The notes below the pieces were generated by a model. It did no database searches and had not been told where the DNA came from. It saw only the letters and a program-made list of their open reading frames with translations. Positions 1 to 61,137 of a stretch of DNA of 64,000 nt are shown one piece after another. The position numbers and the translations under genes are program-made. Positions within the stretch are counted from its first letter, which is position 1; every line of letters starts with the position of its first letter. The stretch covers positions 43,214-107,213 of the IMG/VR virus record IMGVR_UViG_2595698869_000001; one strand, written 5' to 3'. Source of the DNA: a virus. Taxonomy: Duplodnaviria > Heunggongvirae > Uroviricota > Caudoviricetes.

Positions 1-2848
1 CCTGACGTCGGGCGACATCGGCACGGTCATCGTCACCGCGCCCGAGGCGACCACCCAGGTCATCCCGCCGGTCGAGACCAGCGGCGACATCGGCACCATC
101 ACCGTCGTGACGGTGACGGGCGAGGCGTCGTGGAACAACAACGTCTCGGCCTCGGGCGACATCGGCACGATCATCGTTACCGTGCCCGACGTCGTGGCCG
201 TGGGCGACGATCTGGCCGAAGGGCTGATCGGCACGATCACGGTGATCGCGCCCGAGGGCGTGGCGCTCCAGGACGCCAATGTCGCGGCCGACATCGGCAC
301 CATCTCGGTCTATCCGATCGAAGGCGGTCAACCCGGCGACGCGGTCGGCGACATCCCCTATATCCAGGTGGTCACGCCGGGCGCGACGGTCAACGCCTCG
401 TCGGGCGACGACATCTCGCTCTACGCCGACATCGGCACGATCTACGTCCTCCAGGTCTACGGCCAGGGCTTCTGGATTTCCGAGGACAACTACGTCCACG
501 CCCTGCCCGATCCGCTGATCGTCACCACCACCGCGCCGGAAGGCTCGGCGCGCGGCGACGTCCATATCGTCCAGCCGCTGCCGACCATCGTCGTCACCGC
601 GCCGGTCCCGGTCGCGGCGGGTAACGCCCTGGCCGACGCCTATACGGGCGACTTCATCATCCTGGTCGCCGCGCCGGTTCCGCAAACGGAACTGAACGCG
701 AACGTCAACGTCTCGATGCCGCCGCCGATCGTCATCAACGGCAATGACGCGGAAGCCTCGCTTGACCTGAGCGTGCCGTTCAGCGACACGGCGGTGTTCG
801 TTACCGGCCCTGAGGCTCTGGGCCTGGGCTTCCACGGCGGCGAGATGGGACCGCCGATCGTGGTCACCCCGCCGCAGGGCGGCCCGGAGATTTCGGTCGA
901 AATCTTCGTCGATCCCGGCACGATCCTGGTGGAGGCCCCGCGCTTCCACTATATCCCCCCGATCACGGTGTTCCCGCCCGAAGGCGTGGCCCTCGACGCC
1001 AAGTCGGCCGAGGCTTCCGGTGATTTGGGGACCATCACCATCGGGGTCCCGACCGGCGGCTACCAAGCCAACGTCGCCATCAACCTGCCGCTGCCGACGA
1101 TCTTCGTCAACGTCCCGCAGGTCGTGGTCTTCGCCTCGGTCGCCGTGTCGGGCGACATCGGGACGATCACCCTCACCCCGCCGGCCGCCACCCTGACTGC
1201 CGGCGCGGACGCGGCCTTCACCCTGCCCGGCCCGATCGTTGTCACCGCGCCCGAGGCGACGGCGACGGCGGGCACGGCGGCGGCGACCTCTGGCGCCCTG
1301 ACCACGATCACCCTCACCCCGCCCGAGGGCTCGGTCTCGACCGGCGCGGCGGCGGCGACCTCGGGCGCGATCGGCACGATCCTCGTCTCGCCGTTCGACG
1401 GCAGCGTCTTCATCTCCTATCCGGGCAATGCGTCGGGCGCGATCGGCACGATCGTCGTCACGCCGCCGGCCGCGACCGTCTCCAACGGCCGCAATCTGTC
1501 GATCGCCCTGCCCGGCCCGATCATCGTCACCCCGCCTGCGGCCCAGCCTCAGGCTGGCGCGGCGCTCTCCGGCGACATCGGTACGATCGTCGTCACCAAC
1601 CCGGATGGTCAGGGCACCGGCGACACCGTGCTGGCCTCGGGCGCGATCGGCACGATCGTCGTCACCACCCCGGACGGCGCGGCAACCGGGCGGGGCCTGG
1701 GCACGGGCGCGATCGGCACGATCGTCGTCACCCCGCCGGCCGCGACCCTGACCACCGGCGCCAACAAGGCCGCCGCCCTTCCCGGCCCGATCATCGTCAC
1801 CCCGCCGGTTGGCGTGGGCCGCGTCCCCGCCGCCGGCACGGGCGATCTGGCGACGATCACCATCACCAGCACGCCCGAAGCCACCCTTTCGGTGGGCCAG
1901 GACATCGCTGGTCAGATCGGCACGATCAGCATCATCCCGCCCGAGGCGCTGCCGCAGGGCTCGGTGTTCGTCGACCCGACCGACGAAATGGTCGTGCAGG
2001 TCCTGCCCCCGCAGGCCATCCTCTTCCGCGAGGCCACGGTCATCGTCGGCTTCCCGACGGTGTATCTGGTCGCGCCCGAGGCGATCACCTATTCGCTGGC
2101 CGAATTCGCCTCGATCACCCTGCTGCCGCCGGACGCCTATGTCGACGTCCCGCTCCCGCTGGGCAAGAACCGCATCCGCTACCGCCGCAACAACACCGCT
2201 GGCCTTACTCCGACCAGCCTGCGTCCCAACGAGATCGCCCTGAACGAGACCGACGGCCTGCTGTTCACGCGCGACGGCGCCGGCGCGGTCAAGGCTACCC
2301 CGCTGGGCTTCCTGACCGGCGCGGGCGTGCCGCCGCCGATCACCGACAACGGCAAGGTCCTGTCGGGCGGCCTGTCCTGGGAGACGCCGAACACCCGCTA
2401 CCTCCTGCCGGTCCGCAACGCGCCGCCGGCTGGCGCGCGCATCGCCCTGGGCGAGGGCGTGGTGGGCGTTACGACCTTCACCCCGACGGTCGACGTCACC
2501 TACACGCGTCCGTTCTTCGTGGCCAAGACCATCGACATCCAGGCGCTGTCGGTGGATGTGGTGGGCGCCGCCGCCGCCACGGCCGAACTGGGCCTGATCG
2601 GCTGGTCCCTGTCGGGCGTGCCCGGCGCGACCCTGGCGCTCGGTACGGTCAGCACCGCGACCACCGGCGTCAAGACGGCGACCGGCACGGCCGTGACCTT
2701 GACGCCGGGCTGGTACGCCTCCACCTTCAAGGTCACCGGCGCGGCGGGGGCGTCGTTCCGGGCTCCGACCGCACCGACGGCGATCGCGCCGGACCTCACC
2801 GTGACGCCGGGCGCCCCGGCGCCGGTCATGGCAGACCTGGAGGCCTAA
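1..2848 (+). CDS. Large repetitive virion protein, 5'-truncated by window edge (head-filament/fibre candidate)
   Basis: Frame is open from position 2 (LTSGDIGTVIVTAPE...), upstream of the listed 107 start. It carries many SG(D/A)IGTI(T/V)VT(P/A)P repeats, then a short fibre-adaptor-like motif (LRPNEIALNETDGLLF) and a C-terminal beta-rich domain. Confidence 0.85.
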   Translation, partial: LTSGDIGTVIVTAPEATTQVIPPVETSGDIGTITVVTVTGEASWNNNVSASGDIGTIIVTVPDVVAVGDDLAEGLIGTITVIAPEGVALQDANVAADIGTISVYPIEGGQPGDAVGDIPYIQVVTPGATVNASSGDDISLYADIGTIYVLQVYGQGFWISEDNYVHALPDPLIVTTTAPEGSARGDVHIVQPLPTIVVTAPVPVAAGNALADAYTGDFIILVAAPVPQTELNANVNVSMPPPIVINGNDAEASLDLSVPFSDTAVFVTGPEALGLGFHGGEMGPPIVVTPPQGGPEISVEIFVDPGTILVEAPRFHYIPPITVFPPEGVALDAKSAEASGDLGTITIGVPTGGYQANVAINLPLPTIFVNVPQVVVFASVAVSGDIGTITLTPPAATLTAGADAAFTLPGPIVVTAPEATATAGTAAATSGALTTITLTPPEGSVSTGAAAATSGAIGTILVSPFDGSVFISYPGNASGAIGTIVVTPPAATVSNGRNLSIALPGPIIVTPPAAQPQAGAALSGDIGTIVVTNPDGQGTGDTVLASGAIGTIVVTTPDGAATGRGLGTGAIGTIVVTPPAATLTTGANKAAALPGPIIVTPPVGVGRVPAAGTGDLATITITSTPEATLSVGQDIAGQIGTISIIPPEALPQGSVFVDPTDEMVVQVLPPQAILFREATVIVGFPTVYLVAPEAITYSLAEFASITLLPPDAYVDVPLPLGKNRIRYRRNNTAGLTPTSLRPNEIALNETDGLLFTRDGAGAVKATPLGFLTGAGVPPPITDNGKVLSGGLSWETPNTRYLLPVRNAPPAGARIALGEGVVGVTTFTPTVDVTYTRPFFVAKTIDIQALSVDVVGAAAATAELGLIGWSLSGVPGATLALGTVSTATTGVKTATGTAVTLTPGWYASTFKVTGAAGASFRAPTAPTAIAPDLTVTPGAPAPVMADLEA

Positions 2849-4629: not shown

Positions 4630-4673
4630 GGCGCTTCCCCGTCCACTCTGCTGAAATTCGGTCTCAGTCCCAT

Positions 4674-4749
4674 GTCGGTCTAGCTCATGGGGTAGAGCGG
4701 CGGTCTCCAAAACCGCGCGTGGCAGGTTCGAGTCCTGCGACCGGCGCCA
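4674..4749 (+). tRNA. tRNA-Trp(CCA)
   Basis: Cloverleaf, GCGGT-CTCCAAA-ACCGC anticodon arm, GGTTCGAGTCC T arm, encoded CCA. Confidence 0.92.
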
Positions 4750-6449: not shown

Positions 6450-6536
6450 GGATGTGTCACCTCAGTGGCGAGAGGACCGGGCTCTTAATCCGGCAGCGAA
6501 AGCTCATCGTGGGTTCGAGTCCCACCACATCCTCCA
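6450..6536 (+). tRNA. tRNA-Lys(CTT) with long variable arm
   Basis: CCGGG-CTCTTAA-TCCGG; extra arm AGC-GAAA-GCT; CCA. Confidence 0.85.
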
Positions 6537-6541
6537 ATAAT

Positions 6542-6631
6542 GCACGAGTGACCCGAGCGGCGAAGGGCGTCGACTTTTAATCGACTGGGCGTCCAGCCTC
6601 ACCGAGGGTTCGAGTCCCTCCTCGTGCTCCA
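6542..6631 (+). tRNA. tRNA-Lys(TTT) with long variable arm
   Basis: GTCGA-CTTTTAA-TCGAC; ~18-nt variable region; CCA. Confidence 0.85.
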
Positions 6632-9144: not shown

Positions 9145-9219
9145 TCCAGTCAATGCACAAGGTGTGCAGCGGCACTGTTAATGCCTGTGAGCCCGGTTCG
9201 ATTCCGGGGTCTGGAGCCA
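9145..9219 (+). tRNA. tRNA-Asn(GTT)
   Basis: GGCA-CTGTTAA-TGCC, G73, CCA. Confidence 0.85.
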
Positions 9220-40940: not shown

Positions 40941-43748
40941 TTACCCCTCACATGCCAAGCAGTCGGACGAGGCCGTCGGGTTGAGGGCCAGCATCGCGGC
41001 CTCCTCGGCGGAGCCCTCGGTCACGGGCTCCTCGGCGATCTCGATCTTCTTGCGCTCGACCTTGGCGTTGGTGTTCTCGGCCCGCTTGGGGGTCGACGAG
41101 CGCAGGTAGTAGAAGGACTTGACGCCGGCGCCCTCGCCCCAGCCCAGGAAGTGGAGTTCCGAGAGGTACTCGGCGTCCGCGTCGTGGGGCACGAAGACGT
41201 TCAGGGACTGGCCCTGGCAGATCGACTTGGAGCGGTCGACCGCGAGGGTCACGACCCAGCGCTGGTCCATTTCGCGGGCGGTCCGGTAGACCTTCAGGAG
41301 ATGCAGGCGCTCGGCTTCCGGCATGGTCACGCCGTGCTCGGCCAGGAACTCGGGCGTGAAGTGCTGGATCGAGCCCTCGGCCGCGACGATCGACTTCCAG
41401 ACCGCCTCGGTGTCCAGGCCCAGTTCGCCCAGGCGCTTCTTCAGCCAGCGGTTCTTGACGGCGAACGAGCCCGACAGGGTCTTGTGCAGGAAGGTGTTGG
41501 CCGGGATCGGCTCGATCGACGGCGAGGTGCCCCCGCAGAGGATCGAGGACGAGGCGTTGGGCGCCACGGCCAGCTTGTGGGCGAACCGCTCGCCCGTGCC
41601 TTCCATGTCCGGCGCCTCGCCGCGCTCCTTGCCCAGCAGCAGGGAAGCCGCGTCGGCCTGCTTGCGCATGTGGACGAACAGTTCCAGGTTCAGCCGGCGG
41701 GCGGCGTGACTCTCGAACGGGATGTCCAGCATCTGGAGCAGCGAGTGGAAGCCGAGCAGGCCCAGGCCCACCGACCGTTCGCGCACGGCGCTGTAGGCGG
41801 CGCGGTGCATCTCGTCCGGCGCGTTGTCGATGAACACCTGGAGGCAGTTGTCCAGCATGCGCAGCAGGTCTTCGATGAAGGTCGGGTGATCCCGCCACTC
41901 CGGCCACTTCTCGGCGTTGACGCTGGAGAGGCAGCAGACGGCGGTCCGCATCTTGCCGAAGATGTCGCGGCCCGAGCCCAGCATGATCTCCGAGCAGTTG
42001 CCCGTCAGATAGCCGTTGAAGACCAGACGGTTGCGCAGGGGCTCGGTCGCGCAGAAGACGTCGGCCTTGTGCGCGAGCGGGTGGACGTCGGCGACCGTCG
42101 CCGCCAGGATCGAGGCCACCCCGATCGCGGCATCGCGCGGCTCGATCGCGTGGGCCAGGACGATGCCGCGATCCGACAGGTAGGCCACGTCCCACTCGGC
42201 GAGCGAGAAGGCGCTGACCGTGTCGGTCAGGCGGATGCGCGGGTGAAGGCCGGACTCGATGGCCATGAGGCGCATCTGGCGGATCAGGTCGACGTCGGTC
42301 GAGCCGACGGTCAGCCAGCGCGCGCCGTCGATCTCGACCCACTCGCCGGCCGCGTCCAGCGCGCCGGCCAGCCACGTCAGGCGGCGTTCGACAGTCCAGG
42401 CGAATGGCACCACGCCGGGATTGATCACCTGCGGGTCAAAGCGCAGGGTCGTGCCGTGCTCGTCGCCTTCCAGGTTGGTCGACAGCGTCGACAGGCGCTT
42501 GAGCACCTCGCCGGGCAGGGTCTCGGGCACGAAGGCCGACAGCCGGTTCTTGTCGTCGAAGCCAGCGAAGGTCGTCCAGCCGGCGGCATAGGCCTGCTCG
42601 ATCGGCGGCGTCGCGTCGGCCAGTCCCTCGATCACCGGCGCCTGGGCCTTGGCCAGCACGGTCCCGAGCTTCAGTTCGCCGGCCCGAACCTCCACGCCGT
42701 CCTTGGTGTAGAACTTGTGGTAGGGGGTGCAGTCGAGATAGTCGCCGTCCTCGAACCAGACGCGCACCAGCGAGGCCTTCTCGTCGGTGGGGTTGGTCTG
42801 CTGGATCAGGACGCGGCTGAATTCCTCGCCGTTCCAGACGTCGTGGTATTCGCCCTTCAGGGCCTCGATCGGCAGGTGGCCGTTGCGGGTCAGGATTTCG
42901 GTCTCGCCGGTCACGCAGAGGTTCGACTGGCGGACCTTGAGGCCGAGCTTCTTCTGCGCCTCGGGGAAGTGGCGGTTGGAGGTGTCGATGAAGTGGATGT
43001 AGGGCTCGCCCGTCTGCATCCGCGTCTCGATCAGCAGGCGCCACAGTTCGCGCGCCCGCTCGACGCGGATCACCTCGCCGGTCTTGGGCGAACGCAGGGC
43101 GAACTCGGTGTCGTCGCGCACCGCGATCATGAACTCGTCGGTGACGTTGACGGCGTTGTGCAGATTGGTGATCTTGCGGTTCTGGTCGCCGCCGGTCGGC
43201 TTGCGGGCCGTGATGAACTCGCGGATTTCCGGGTGGCTGATGTCCAGATAGACGGCGTTGGAGCCCCGGCGCGTGCCGCCTTGGCTGACGGCGAGAATCA
43301 GGCGATCGTCCACCGCCATGAACGGGATCACGCCGGTCGACTGCGAACCCTTCGAGGTCTTCTCGCCCAGGCCGCGCAGGGCGCCGTAGTAGGAGCCGAT
43401 GCCGCCGCCCATCGACGAGAGCCAGATAACCTCGTCATAGTGCTCGGAGATCGACTCGCGGCTGTCCTCGATCGCGGTGAGGAAGCAGGAGATCGGCAGG
43501 CCGCGCGCGGACCCGCCGTTCGACAGCAGGGGCGTGGCGAACATGAACCAGAGGTTCGAGACATAGTCGTAGAGCCGCTGGCCGTGCTCGGCGTCATCCG
43601 CGAAGGCCGCACTCGCGCGCGCGAAGGCCTCCTGGGGCGAGCTTTCCCCAGGCAGCAGATAGCGTTCACGGAGGGTCTGAAGGGTGAAGTCGTCGAGCAG
43701 GGCGTCGCGGGTGAGATCGATCTTGATTTCGGAGGGTGCGACAGCCAT
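40941..43748 (-). CDS. nrdA: Class I ribonucleotide reductase alpha subunit, intein-containing
   Basis: ATPLLSNGG, PISCFL, SNL-[intein]-CSEI, APNASSS, CQGQSLN, YYLRS, C-terminal CLACEG; start placed at ATG 43748. Confidence 0.93.
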   Translation of the reverse strand: MAVAPSEIKIDLTRDALLDDFTLQTLRERYLLPGESSPQEAFARASAAFADDAEHGQRLYDYVSNLWFMFATPLLSNGGSARGLPISCFLTAIEDSRESISEHYDEVIWLSSMGGGIGSYYGALRGLGEKTSKGSQSTGVIPFMAVDDRLILAVSQGGTRRGSNAVYLDISHPEIREFITARKPTGGDQNRKITNLHNAVNVTDEFMIAVRDDTEFALRSPKTGEVIRVERARELWRLLIETRMQTGEPYIHFIDTSNRHFPEAQKKLGLKVRQSNLCVTGETEILTRNGHLPIEALKGEYHDVWNGEEFSRVLIQQTNPTDEKASLVRVWFEDGDYLDCTPYHKFYTKDGVEVRAGELKLGTVLAKAQAPVIEGLADATPPIEQAYAAGWTTFAGFDDKNRLSAFVPETLPGEVLKRLSTLSTNLEGDEHGTTLRFDPQVINPGVVPFAWTVERRLTWLAGALDAAGEWVEIDGARWLTVGSTDVDLIRQMRLMAIESGLHPRIRLTDTVSAFSLAEWDVAYLSDRGIVLAHAIEPRDAAIGVASILAATVADVHPLAHKADVFCATEPLRNRLVFNGYLTGNCSEIMLGSGRDIFGKMRTAVCCLSSVNAEKWPEWRDHPTFIEDLLRMLDNCLQVFIDNAPDEMHRAAYSAVRERSVGLGLLGFHSLLQMLDIPFESHAARRLNLELFVHMRKQADAASLLLGKERGEAPDMEGTGERFAHKLAVAPNASSSILCGGTSPSIEPIPANTFLHKTLSGSFAVKNRWLKKRLGELGLDTEAVWKSIVAAEGSIQHFTPEFLAEHGVTMPEAERLHLLKVYRTAREMDQRWVVTLAVDRSKSICQGQSLNVFVPHDADAEYLSELHFLGWGEGAGVKSFYYLRSSTPKRAENTNAKVERKKIEIAEEPVTEGSAEEAAMLALNPTASSDCLACEG
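41997..42917 (-). mobile_element. Intein (307 aa) with degenerate LAGLIDADG region
   Basis: Begins CVTGETEILT, contains CTPYHKF (block B), ends VFCATEP..N.L..NG.LTGN before Cys; splits the NL/CSE active-site loop. Confidence 0.9.
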
Positions 43749-58659: not shown

Positions 58660-59285
58660 AACGGGCCGTCCTTCTGCATTAGCCCCGCCGCCGCGCCTTC
58701 CAGGCGGCACGGGCCGGGACGGTGGTTGGTGACGAGCAGGCCGAGGCAGCGGCGGGCGAGTCGAAGGAGAACCCGGCGAGCGGCGGAAGGCGTCGTTGAC
58801 GCCCTCGGACTCGACAAGCACGTGGTGATGCCGGAAATCACCGCGATCGCGCGGACGTCTGGACGTTGCTAGGCGTAAGGCAGGCCTGCCGAGAAGTGGA
58901 AACGGCCGGGGCGGGCGGGACTTGATCTCGTCCGCCTTTCCGCCTAAGCTTCCCTCATTGCAGGCGCAGCACCGCCCTTCGCTAACGGCCCCGAGGGGTA
59001 CGCAAGGGCTAGAAGCCTTGCCTGGGACAGGACTGCCTCTGATCCAGGAACGCCCTGGGCCGCGTAGCGCCCATGACGCGAACGCCGGCCGAGAATGGGC
59101 GACTAGGCGTGACGGCGGCCAGAGGCCGCAGCGACATTCCAAGCTCGATAGAGCGATCGGCGGGCCGGGGCGAAAGCCCTGTTTCGAGAGCCAGGGCAAC
59201 CCGTCATAGGTCCTGGTCGGGCGACGAGGCAGCAAGTCCCGCGAACGGAGCCTCTGAGGTGGCGTCACCAAGATGCAGCAGACGC
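58660..59285 (+). ncRNA. Unassigned ~630-nt structured RNA candidate
   Basis: TTGACT(58625)-N15-GTTAATCA promoter, terminator 59286-59319, end-to-end helices (58674-79/59273-78; 58726-34/59263-71), many GNRA-capped hairpins, no ORF with phage codon bias. Confidence 0.6.
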
Positions 59286-59323: not shown

Positions 59324-59412
59324 TGGAGCTTCGGGAGGGACTCGAACCCTCATAGGTGTTCCCACCAGCAGAGATTTGCAATCCCGCGCCTAACCTCTCA
59401 GTCCACCGAAGC
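59324..59412 (-). tRNA. tRNA-Cys(GCA) with long variable arm
   Basis: GCTTCGG/CCGAAGC acceptor, loop TTGCAAA, GGTG-GGAA-CACC extra arm, U73, CCA. Confidence 0.85.
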
Positions 59413-59456
59413 ACAAAAGGACCTCGACGCCCGAAGGCCCGAGGTCCGATCCGTAA

Positions 59457-59589
59457 CCAGGGGAGGGCCGTAGCTGTCCCCTGACCCTGAACGACAGGTG
59501 GCGGGCTTGGTCGTCATCCCGTCAGGCTCGCGGCGCCGCTCGCCTGAACCGCCGATATGCCACGAGGGCAGTGATCCGCAGGTCCCCAC
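59457..59589 (-). ncRNA. 6S RNA-like rod with central bubble
   Basis: Self-complementary rod (GGGGA/TCCCC, CTGCCCT/GGGGACAG, GGCGG/CCGCC, TCAGGC/GCCTGA), small hairpin in the 3' bubble, flanked by terminator-like hairpins. Confidence 0.45.
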
Positions 59590-59596
59590 AAATAGC

Positions 59597-59635
59597 AAAA
59601 AGGCCACGATCCGCGAGGACCGTGGCCTTTTCGTT
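59597..59635. terminator. Bidirectional terminator
   Basis: AAAAAGGCCACG...CGTGGCCTTTT. Confidence 0.8.
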
Positions 59636-59639
59636 TTCC

Positions 59640-60510
59640 GATGGGCTGAGACTACACCCATCAGCAATCCCGCTTCGAGGATTATTCCCCAGGTGCGACC
59701 CCAGGTATTCCCTCGACGTCCACCAGACCCCTTGCGGTAGTCCAGTCCGAGATCATCGCCGCCGTTCTTGCGCACCCCGAAGGGATTGCGGGTCTGGCGT
59801 TTGACCCATCATGGCGAACTACTCGACAGTTCCTTCCCCGCTGGGCTTGCGACCCACTCACCGGCGCTAACCGGCTGACGAAGCTCTTCCTATCGACACC
59901 TCGCGGGCTTGCGACCCTTGAGATGACTCCGTTACCCGAAGGCCGGAGCATTTGGCGACTTACGTCCGCCACTGGACCAGTCTTTGCGTTTTTCATCGAA
60001 GCGGGGATTGAACCCGCGACCGACAGCTTAAGAGGCTGTTGCACTACCACTGTGCTATTCGCAAACCCACCAAGACGTGCTGGTCCAGTTGTTCCCAGAG
60101 CTTTTGACCCCGGAAATGCAACACGCCTCATATCTTTCGCCTTGCGGGCTACTCGACTGCTCTTCAGGACTCCGTCTCCCCCAACCTTTCGGCCAGGATG
60201 CCCAGCACCCCTCGAACTGAAGCAAAGCTCTTCACCGCGAAGTGTCGAACCCTGCAACCCAAACGGTTATCCGTACTCCCTAGACACGCTTGCACGGGAT
60301 AGTCCGCTTGCGACGGACTGGCGGTTAAAGCCTCGGAGTTACCCCGGCCCCGCCTTGTCTCCCACGGTCTTCAGGTCTATCCCCTTTTGCAAGAGGCGGC
60401 CAGCTTCCCAGCCCGGACCCGTCGGCTTCCTCTGTCCTCTTGCGAGGTCGGGCGGCCTATGGGAGACCGTCCCTGTCACCCCGTCGCCGGGGCTTTCGTC
60501 AGAAGCGACG
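59640..60510 (-). ncRNA. ~870-nt GOLLD-like large structured RNA
   Basis: TTGACG(60544-60539)-N15-GCTAGAAC promoter, at least seven GCAA/GAAA-capped hairpins on the minus strand, long-range helices, embedded tRNA body, terminator at 59597-59635. Confidence 0.65.
59994..60064 (-). tRNA. tRNA-Lys(CTT)-like body embedded in the large RNA, no CCA
   Basis: D arm GCAC-AGTGGTA-GTGC, ACAGC-CTCTTAA-GCTGT, GCGGG-TTCAATC-CCCGC; acceptor only 4 bp, continuing into a longer stem. Confidence 0.7.
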
Positions 60511-60631
60511 ATGACGTTCTAGCGACAGCCCACGTCGTCGTCAACGACTTTTTCCGTCTCGATGTCGAATTTTTTCGACAGTCGTGGATGACGACAGTGC
60601 TTGACATTCTCGTAAGCCCATGCTAGGTGTC

Positions 60632-61003
60632 GGAAATCGTTGTAATTCGGACAACGGAACTGGCGGCAAGACAGGGGTGCGAATCCCCTCGCCTCCACCA
60701 TCGACGCCCGGCGCTGGGAGTACGCGACTCCTGGGCAGGGAGTGTTACCCTGGCGGGCTGCGGCCCGAGCCAAAGGTAGCCGGGCGTCGTTGATGGGGGC
60801 GACTAGCTTTCGATTGGCGCTCGGGACTGAAAGACGCAACGGTGGGTGACCTCCACATCGGCTTGCCGGTGATCGGGTCAGGCAACAGTAAATGTCGCCG
60901 ACAATGACAACGACGTCGTGGCTTTCGCCTCGGCTCGTGAAGCCATCGCCGCCTAATAAGCGGTAGAGGAGCCCGCCGGGAGCTTGGCAACAGAATCCCG
61001 GCA
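60632..61003 (+). ncRNA. ssrA: Two-piece (circularly permuted) tmRNA
   Basis: Acceptor piece ends GGGGTGCGAATCCCCTCGCCTCCACCA (60700). Coding piece starts GGGGGCG (60795), giving a 7-bp stem with G3-U70. Tag frame 60897-60956 reads ADNDNDVVAFASAREAIAA-stop. Promoter TTGACA(60601)-N15-GCTAGG. Confidence 0.9.
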
Positions 61004-61137
61004 ACCCCCTTTCGCAGGCGGGAACACCAACAGGCGATCTGTCGGGCGACCGATTTCCGATCCGTGTTCCCGTCTTCGAAAGGTGGTCAGGCCTACCCTC
61101 TTGGTGTGCTATCCAAGGGTCTGGCCACTTTACAGAA

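Follow-up and report, generated by a model that had tools for sequence, protein, structure and literature searches.

The 64,000-nucleotide (nt) stretch of viral DNA analysed here (hereafter the window; positions 43,214 to 107,213 of the IMG/VR record IMGVR_UViG_2595698869_000001) encodes on its minus strand a GOLLD RNA that carries a tRNA-like module in its linker. The module combines a tRNA-shaped body and a canonical Lys-type anticodon loop with a degraded acceptor end, and in close relatives five adjacent loop positions are exchanged on an otherwise identical module. The sequences of this module and its relatives suggest that the working part of at least one GOLLD subgroup is the anticodon arm, because the arms are under selection, the loop frame is kept and the triplet turns over while the charging end is degraded. 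As the best explanation of the whole, we lean towards a tethered tRNA mimic, lodged in a GOLLD cage and, more tentatively, acting as bait through its anticodon arm.

An original prediction, made from the letters of the window, had placed an ~870-nt GOLLD-like RNA at this site and named a search with the Rfam GOLLD model (RF02032) as its check. This search matched the minus strand from 60129 to 59643 with 171.2 bits (E = 2.5e-46), above the gathering score of 150 bits, and the match covers all model positions (1-416 of 416); no other RF02032 match occurs in the virus genome of 221,828 bp to which the window belongs. The proposed size was also upheld, as the candidate promoter and the terminator bound an RNA of ~870-915 nt. 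Like other GOLLD RNAs, it has a large, structured and less conserved 5' domain, a total size of at least ~800 nt, and a location in a phage genome near tRNA genes: a tRNA-Cys gene, a transfer-messenger RNA (tmRNA) gene and a pair of tRNA-Met genes are no more than 1.6 kb away, and 29 tRNA genes occur in the window as a whole. The window stretch shares 99.0-99.8% identity with 14 phiCbK-like Caulobacter phage records and 95.7% with BL57. Among the entries of the supplementary GOLLD alignment published by Kretsch et al. 2025 (PMC12286853) is 'JX100811.1:c103342-102856 Caulobacter phage CcrKarma', whose coordinates are exactly those of the RF02032 match in the window's genome. Given the full-length, above-threshold match, the 99.8% phiCbK-like identity and the presence of the locus in a published alignment, the RNA is, with near certainty, the GOLLD of a phiCbK-like Caulobacter phage, either CcrKarma or a near-identical genome. 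Other members of this alignment (PMC12286853) are phiCbK, Ccr2/5/10/29/32/34, Magneto and Swift, together with Mesorhizobium phage Cp1R7A-A1 and Roseobacter phage DSS3P8. This locus, GOLLD as a kind, and linker tRNAs are thus already known from the literature, and neither the identity of the RNA nor its general architecture is new. In all the phage records that we fetched, the GOLLD RNA is unannotated and the embedded tRNA alone is annotated, as Lys or Gly.

The complete D/anticodon/T core that had been predicted for the module is corroborated by ARAGORN, by a match to the Rfam tRNA model and by covarying arms. The elements of the cloverleaf and of the L-shape are present (U8, G15/C48, G18-G19, a T loop UUCAAUC and a 5-nt variable loop), and the window allele of the anticodon loop, CUCUUAA, is a canonical 7-nt loop with U33 and a purine at position 37. 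In a structure alignment, 98.2% of the cells are paired, compared with 74% in shuffles (0 of 500 reached the observed value) and 30-42% when the partners were slid; the module arms covary in an alignment of 38 sequences. The Rfam tRNA model covers the module only at positions 4-67 (60061..59997). At the acceptor, four clean pairs (A7-U66, A6-U67, G5-C68 and C4-G69) are followed distally by G3.A70, U2.U71 and U1.G72, short of a 7-bp stem. After the T arm come UUCGAUG, the discriminator A73 and AAAA; the gene is followed by AAAAACGC, and the predicted lack of CCA is confirmed. In contrast, the 28 other tRNA genes of the window all encode NCCA (28/28), and they have 7 acceptor pairs in nineteen cases, 6 in eight and 5 in one. 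A free tRNA-Lys(CUU) is already encoded by the same phage at 6450-6536. Because the module has four clean acceptor pairs and no CCA, and every other tRNA gene of the phage has CCA, the tRNA-like domain is probably tethered and not matured into a chargeable tRNA.

The anticodon loop distinguishes close relatives that share everything else in this region, as the module and its flanks are identical in ten phiCbK-like phages apart from positions 33-37. At positions 32-38, the loop reads CUCUUAA in the window, RBC57, Magneto and Swift, CGUCCUA in phiCbK, Ccr10, Ccr29, Ccr32 and S2L, and CAUCCUA in BL57. Between the window and phiCbK, 10 of the 868 RNA positions differ, five of them adjacent at positions 33-37, and the surrounding 3.9 kb are 2.2% different; for five adjacent independent changes, the chance is ~6e-9. 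On their identical body, the phiCbK (G33, U37) and BL57 (A33, U37) alleles have neither U33 nor a purine at position 37. No part of an ordinary tRNA gene is more conserved than its anticodon. Beyond this clade, the homologous body of the nearest relatives carries UCU (L242, L400, Sinorhizobium phage) or CAG (Mesorhizobium phage). Similar exchanges separate L190 and L305 (identical bodies, UUC and UUU), L165 and L311 (bodies 3% different, UCU and CUU) and L143 and L168 (bodies 7% different, GAU and UUU). Across pairs with 6-15% body divergence, the frequency of differences per site at positions 34-36 is two to three times that in the body. No further anticodon alleles of the phiCbK-type module came from scanning viral and metagenome contigs for its exact flanks.

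Several ideas about the anticodon loop were discarded. No compensating change in the 868 nt accompanies the loop swap, so an intramolecular partner of the anticodon loop is rejected for this clade. A small inversion is not the source of the 5-base block, as the alleles are not reverse complements. Self-kissing of palindromic loops was dropped: CUUAAG in the window allele is a palindrome for which the loops of the Mesorhizobium and Sinorhizobium phages offer no counterpart. The lack of CCA, the weak distal acceptor and the loop swapping are undescribed in the GOLLD linker-tRNA literature covered here (PMC12990946 and PMC6582537).

Related modules were collected with a pattern in which the T loop is joined to the conserved linker flank, which gave 107 loci with full GOLLD context and 74 distinct linkers. 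Most of the 3'-domain profile is aligned by 103 of the 107 loci, and 19 of 20 sampled loci exceed the Rfam GOLLD threshold. In a contig scan of genomes, 1 of 99 matches passed the context filter, nearly all being chance matches. Seven acceptor pairs occur in 7 of the 74 modules and CCA after the discriminator in 9, and the loop frame is well kept among the 65 modules with 7-nt loops (U33 in 61, A37 in 53 and A38 in 60). The free tRNAs of the same contigs are very different from the embedded modules called by ARAGORN: CCA is encoded in 579 of 598 free tRNAs (97%) versus 9 of 62 embedded modules, and 7 acceptor pairs are present in 516 of 598 versus 6 of 62. Because of these contrasts, the embedded modules are, as judged from sequence, a distinct class, with a tRNA-like body and loop frame and an un-tRNA-like charging end. 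Their anticodons are skewed (UUU 13, GUU 13, CUU 6, UCU 6 and AUG 5); among the 598 free tRNAs, UUU is found 19 times and GUU 17 times. We also sampled GOLLDs independently of the linker by a 3'-end motif, which returned mostly chance matches; a T loop is present in the linker of about 3 of the ~31 putative GOLLDs that remained after filtering.

Two further observations concern the anticodons of these modules. The loop motif U-A-U-G (anticodon AUG, with A34) recurs on unrelated bodies in L014, L224, L140, L218, L239 and L269, and AUG falls outside the 25 anticodons most often carried by the 598 free tRNAs. Suppressor-type anticodons are found in L253 (UUA, with a perfect acceptor and CCA; GOLLD at 1507..1031) and in L181 (UCA), and the tRNA array of the L014 contig includes a free tRNA with anticodon CUA (4636-4710). 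Stop-codon reassignment in the phages of origin may be behind these cases.

The linker that holds the module is closed by a clamp helix. The GOLLD alignment places the tRNA in the model's unstructured linker, between the first hairpin and the segment with consensus AAAGCAAAAGUCU, to which the conserved flank AAACGCAAAGACUG corresponds. The perfect 10-bp helix of the original prediction proved well founded: across 38 related sequences, 97% of its cells pair and both partners change at 4 of its pairs, RNAalifold selects it, and 34 distinct strand pairs from related GOLLDs alternate G-C, A-U, U-A and C-G at the central positions. Its 5' strand lies in the first hairpin, within the 3' internal bulge, so that the clamp forms a pseudoknot with the outer stem of that hairpin. 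The clamp is also present in the DSS3P8 GOLLD, where a complete tRNA is missing; the DSS3P8 linker (L005, ~1950-2000) has a pair of hairpins instead, one aligning with the anticodon arm and one with the T arm, which resemble a reduced remnant of the module. Within AAACGCAAAGACUG, the segment CGCAAA (59988-59983), invariant in the set, is complementary to UUUGCG (60065-60060); the same complementarity is found in the Sinorhizobium phage and a 5-bp version of it in the Mesorhizobium phage. If formed, this pairing would come at the expense of two of the acceptor's four clean pairs.

Absence of covariation in the flanks had been named beforehand as the observation that would speak against the prediction, and both flanking domains covary strongly. 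For the 5' domain, 12 sequences yield 43 consensus pairs, of which 85% are canonical and 35 show compensatory change; for the 3' domain, in which the helices typical of the family are found, the corresponding values are 73 pairs, 93% canonical and 63 compensatory. Slid controls gave 12-20 (5' domain) and 11-31 (3' domain), and column-shuffled 5' alignments gave 0 pairs. Between phiCbK-like phages, the part of the 3' domain from 59643 to 59970 is almost invariant. The repeated GCAA-capped hairpins that had been noticed stand out against chance, with 7 (N)GCAA-capped hairpins of at least 3 bp in the RNA versus a mean of 0.37 and a maximum of 2 in 500 shuffles. The duplicated motif GUCGAGUAG is likewise genuine, and its GAGUA core is retained at both sites in most of 12 diverged relatives. 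A long-range helix between AGAGCUUU (60231-60224) and AAAGCUCU (60104-60097), also part of the original prediction, did not survive: all 8 pairs form here versus 2-4 of 8 in ten other lineages, and BL57 breaks one pair uncompensated. We reject this helix as not conserved and no more than chance; the RNA contains 14 perfect 8-nt inverted repeats versus 6.3 ± 3.4 in shuffles, and AAAGCUCU is situated within the conserved first hairpin of the 3' domain.

The reading that we favour, a tethered tRNA mimic, would operate as follows. The GOLLD RNA would be transcribed from its own minus-strand promoter and end at the intrinsic terminator. Cryo-electron microscopy of the GOLLD env-38 14-mer and the S. 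agalactiae 12-mer revealed RNA-only closed cages with the disordered linker inside (PMC12286853); by homology, the window GOLLD would assemble into a cage of 12-14 copies with its linker facing the interior. This linker holds an L-shaped tRNA-like domain with a Lys (CUU) loop and is closed by the covarying 10-bp clamp helix; the domain would stay covalently tethered and never be matured to a chargeable tRNA. With their anticodon arms and elbows, the caged copies would then act as a bait, a decoy or a sponge for some factor reading the anticodon loop, a step that we advance only tentatively. A host anticodon nuclease or other tRNA-targeting defence would be the leading candidate for this factor, and the loop swap would retune its specificity. 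We rank such a defence first because nucleases are the best-documented force on phage tRNA loops and Lys-type tRNAs are classic targets of anticodon nucleases. Host anticodon nucleases have been described as a selective force on phage tRNA loops (PMC10264068, PMC11464382). A bolder version, in which we place little confidence, is that GOLLD cages are retunable anticodon decoys whose 12-14 mimics would soak up or inhibit host defences acting on specific, chiefly Lys/Asn, tRNAs, with the phages changing positions 33-37 alone to escape nucleases of new specificity.

Several points weigh against the tethered mimic. A closed cage may exclude a nuclease or other proteins, and no tRNA-targeting defence of Caulobacter was identified in the present analysis. 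The phiCbK and BL57 alleles (G33 or A33, with U37) resemble no natural tRNA and are a poor fit to a mimic of a host tRNA. About a tenth of the modules have a perfect acceptor and CCA (e.g. L014, L224, L249 and L253) and look releasable, and the spectrum of embedded anticodons also fits an ordinary supplementation of codons by phage tRNAs. In addition, the comparator set is biased by its pattern, which required both the T loop and the flank; its members are mutually related, and the counts describe one subgroup and not independent events.

Two other readings accept the GOLLD RNA and differ on the purpose of its insert. The insert could be a releasable cargo, as in the storage idea raised in PMC12286853 and PMC12990946: RNase P and 3' enzymes would excise a tRNA-Lys(CUU), the host would add CCA and AAG would be decoded for the phage, with the clamp holding the nicked GOLLD. 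The canonical window loop (C32 U33 CUU A37 A38) and the full set of tertiary L-shape elements are in keeping with such a cargo, but the G3.A70 and U2.U71 mismatches and the lack of CCA here, compared with CCA in 28 of 28 other tRNA genes, are not. Some relatives do carry a perfect 7-bp acceptor and CCA in the linker, and many embedded modules score 55-65 bits on the Rfam tRNA model; however, one body type bears Lys-, Leu-, Arg- and Gly-type anticodons across relatives, including Leu on a body with a short variable arm, and the identical body of the sister phages, with G33 or A33 and U37, should not decode. The embedded anticodon is absent from the free tRNAs in 17 of 28 contigs that have at least 8 free tRNAs, as a cargo would predict, yet this phage already has its own free tRNA-Lys(CUU), and the pseudo-tRNA embedded in a mycobacterial GOLLD yielded no detected product (PMC6582537). 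The original prediction had left decoy and releasable cargo side by side; our comparisons favour a tethered mimic that is not released, and we consider the cargo unlikely. We are equally doubtful of a structural plug. GOLLD genes sit in tRNA arrays, and in this reading a tRNA captured into a tolerant linker would serve as a compact spacer, its anticodon having no role and its acceptor decaying. Such a plug would account for the minority status of linker tRNAs (about 3 of 31 linker-blind GOLLD candidates), for DSS3P8, which retains no more than a two-hairpin remnant at the same place, and for acceptor stems that span from perfect to degenerate. Compensatory changes nevertheless maintain the arms, and the loop frame (U33, purine 37 and A38) persists in over 90% of the modules even as positions 34-36 turn over, which is not expected of free drift; nor would neutral decay be expected to give five adjacent changes against a background of 99% identity, or the recurrent swaps elsewhere.

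There is hardly any prospect that the region is instead a chance match or a protein-coding stretch with no GOLLD RNA gene. Open frames of 191 and 199 codons do overlap it, and long open frames are common in DNA of such high G+C. This reading is refuted by the match to the GOLLD model (E-value 2.5e-46), by the covariation in both domains and by one-base indels of BL57 and Swift that break the open frames. The BL57 record (L002, 2200-2406) has an annotated coding sequence for a 'hypothetical protein' inside the GOLLD 5' domain, which is probably spurious.

The coordinates of the GOLLD RNA, its parts and its candidate transcription signals are collected in Table 1.

Table 1 Features of the GOLLD locus in the window.
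Feature	Position	Strand	Basis or remark
GOLLD RNA	59643..60510	-	~868 nt to the end of the Rfam match; ~915 nt if reaching the terminator
Variable 5' domain	60130..60510	-	~380 nt; covariation in 12 sequences; most BL57 differences lie here
First hairpin of conserved 3' domain	60069..60129	-	Rfam model positions 1-62; covarying pairs at alignment columns 515-550
Remaining conserved 3' domain	59643..59970	-	Rfam match; includes the pseudoknot helix marked by square brackets in Rfam
tRNA-like module	59992..60065	-	ARAGORN tRNA-Lys(CUU); Rfam tRNA 56 bits
Module arms	D 60055-60041; anticodon 60039-60023; variable loop 60022-60018; T 60017-60001	-	ARAGORN
Anticodon loop CUCUUAA	60028..60034; anticodon CUU 60032-60030; swapped block 60033-60029 (positions 33-37)	-	Ten-phage comparison
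Clamp helix, 5' strand (ACUGGACCAG)	60080..60089	-	Pairs with 59971-59980; closes the linker
Clamp helix, 3' strand (CUGGUCCAGU)	59971..59980	-	Covariation, strand-pair table, RNAalifold
Conserved 3' linker flank AAACGCAAAGACUG	59978..59991	-	Identical in window, Mesorhizobium and Sinorhizobium phage GOLLDs
GUCGAGUAG motif, 5'-domain copy	60149..60157	-	GAGUA core kept in most of 12 lineages
GUCGAGUAG motif, 3'-domain copy	59819..59827	-	Matches Rfam consensus GAGUAG
Candidate Caulobacter housekeeping-type promoter	60516..60544	-	TTGACG, 15-nt spacer, GCTAGAAC
Intrinsic terminator	59596..59633	-	17-bp stem, then U run

The consensus of Caulobacter housekeeping promoters, as reportedly given by Malakooti and Ely in 1995, is TTGACGS-N10-14-GCTANAWC. 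The candidate promoter (TTGACG, 15 nt and GCTAGAAC) is the sole match to the Caulobacter consensus in the 64-kb window, with 0 expected from 100 shuffles, and BL57 retains both boxes (TTGACG and GCTACAAC) despite a differing spacer. Transcription is accordingly predicted to start near 60510. A scan of E. coli-type sigma-70 promoters found none. A permuted two-piece tmRNA gene lies on the plus strand at 60608-61047, divergent from the GOLLD promoter region; its tag begins VADNDND in the window phage and VAANDND in phiCbK and BL57, one residue apart. Beside the GOLLD gene, at 58660-59285 and 59415-59589, a gathering-level Rfam scan covering the whole window gave no family.

Some free tRNA genes of these phages are also unusual. 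The window's tRNA-Lys(CUU) at 6450-6536, tRNA-Lys(UUU) at 6542-6631 and tRNA-Cys(GCA) at 59324-59412 are 87-90 nt long, and in the ARAGORN folds each has CCA, a perfect 7-bp acceptor and a variable arm that is long and base-paired. In bacteria, long variable arms are normally limited to Leu, Ser and Tyr tRNAs. The Mesorhizobium phage has 88-nt genes for tRNA-Lys (two copies) and tRNA-Asn (L003, 242-329, 339-426 and 660-747); the same two families, Lys and Asn, are over-represented among the anticodons of the GOLLD-embedded modules. At 9145-9219 of the window, ARAGORN calls a tRNA-Ile with anticodon AAU (A34), CCA and 6 acceptor pairs, an anticodon unusual for a bacterial system.

The comparative pattern, namely the contrast between embedded and free tRNAs, the kept loop frame and the anticodon turnover on unchanged bodies, may matter more than the individual element. 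If GOLLD cages were retunable decoys, GOLLD, whose function has been open since 2009, would gain a concrete role in counter-defence. CcrKarma and phiCbK provide a natural allele pair with which GOLLD function could be tested directly by genetics, in a host that is tractable, and BL57 extends the pair to an allele series.

As a member of RF02032, the window RNA shares with the family the full conserved 3' domain, a variable and structured 5' domain of ~380 nt, a size near 870 nt, a phage origin beside tRNA genes and tmRNA, and a variable linker after the first 3'-domain hairpin. Its G+C content is 59%, whereas the RF02032 consensus is A+U-rich; no difference excludes membership. The closest parallels to the module are mycobacterial. 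A 2026 review (PMC12990946) describes a Mycolicibacterium tRNA-Phe in the GOLLD linker J13/15 and proposes 'inhibited storage', and for the embedded pseudo-tRNA of the M. aubagnense GOLLD no separate tRNA product was detected (PMC6582537). These GOLLDs have a tRNA-shaped insert in the same linker as the window; unlike them, the window body is common to the Mesorhizobium and Sinorhizobium phage GOLLDs, where it carries different anticodons.

The phage tRNAs that evade nucleases (van den Berg et al. 2023, PMC10264068; the T5 tRNA-Lys against PARIS, PMC11464382) resemble the window module in their fast-changing anticodon loop and in the recurrence of Lys. They are free and chargeable and replace cleaved host tRNAs, whereas the window module would be embedded in a cage and is probably unchargeable, and no nuclease is known for its host. 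The tRNA-like structures at the 3' end of plant viruses are, like the window module, tRNA-shaped and non-decoding domains of a larger RNA. In contrast, these structures are 3'-terminal, have an aminoacylatable CCA and mimic the acceptor end, whereas in the window module the acceptor is degenerate and the anticodon arm is canonical.

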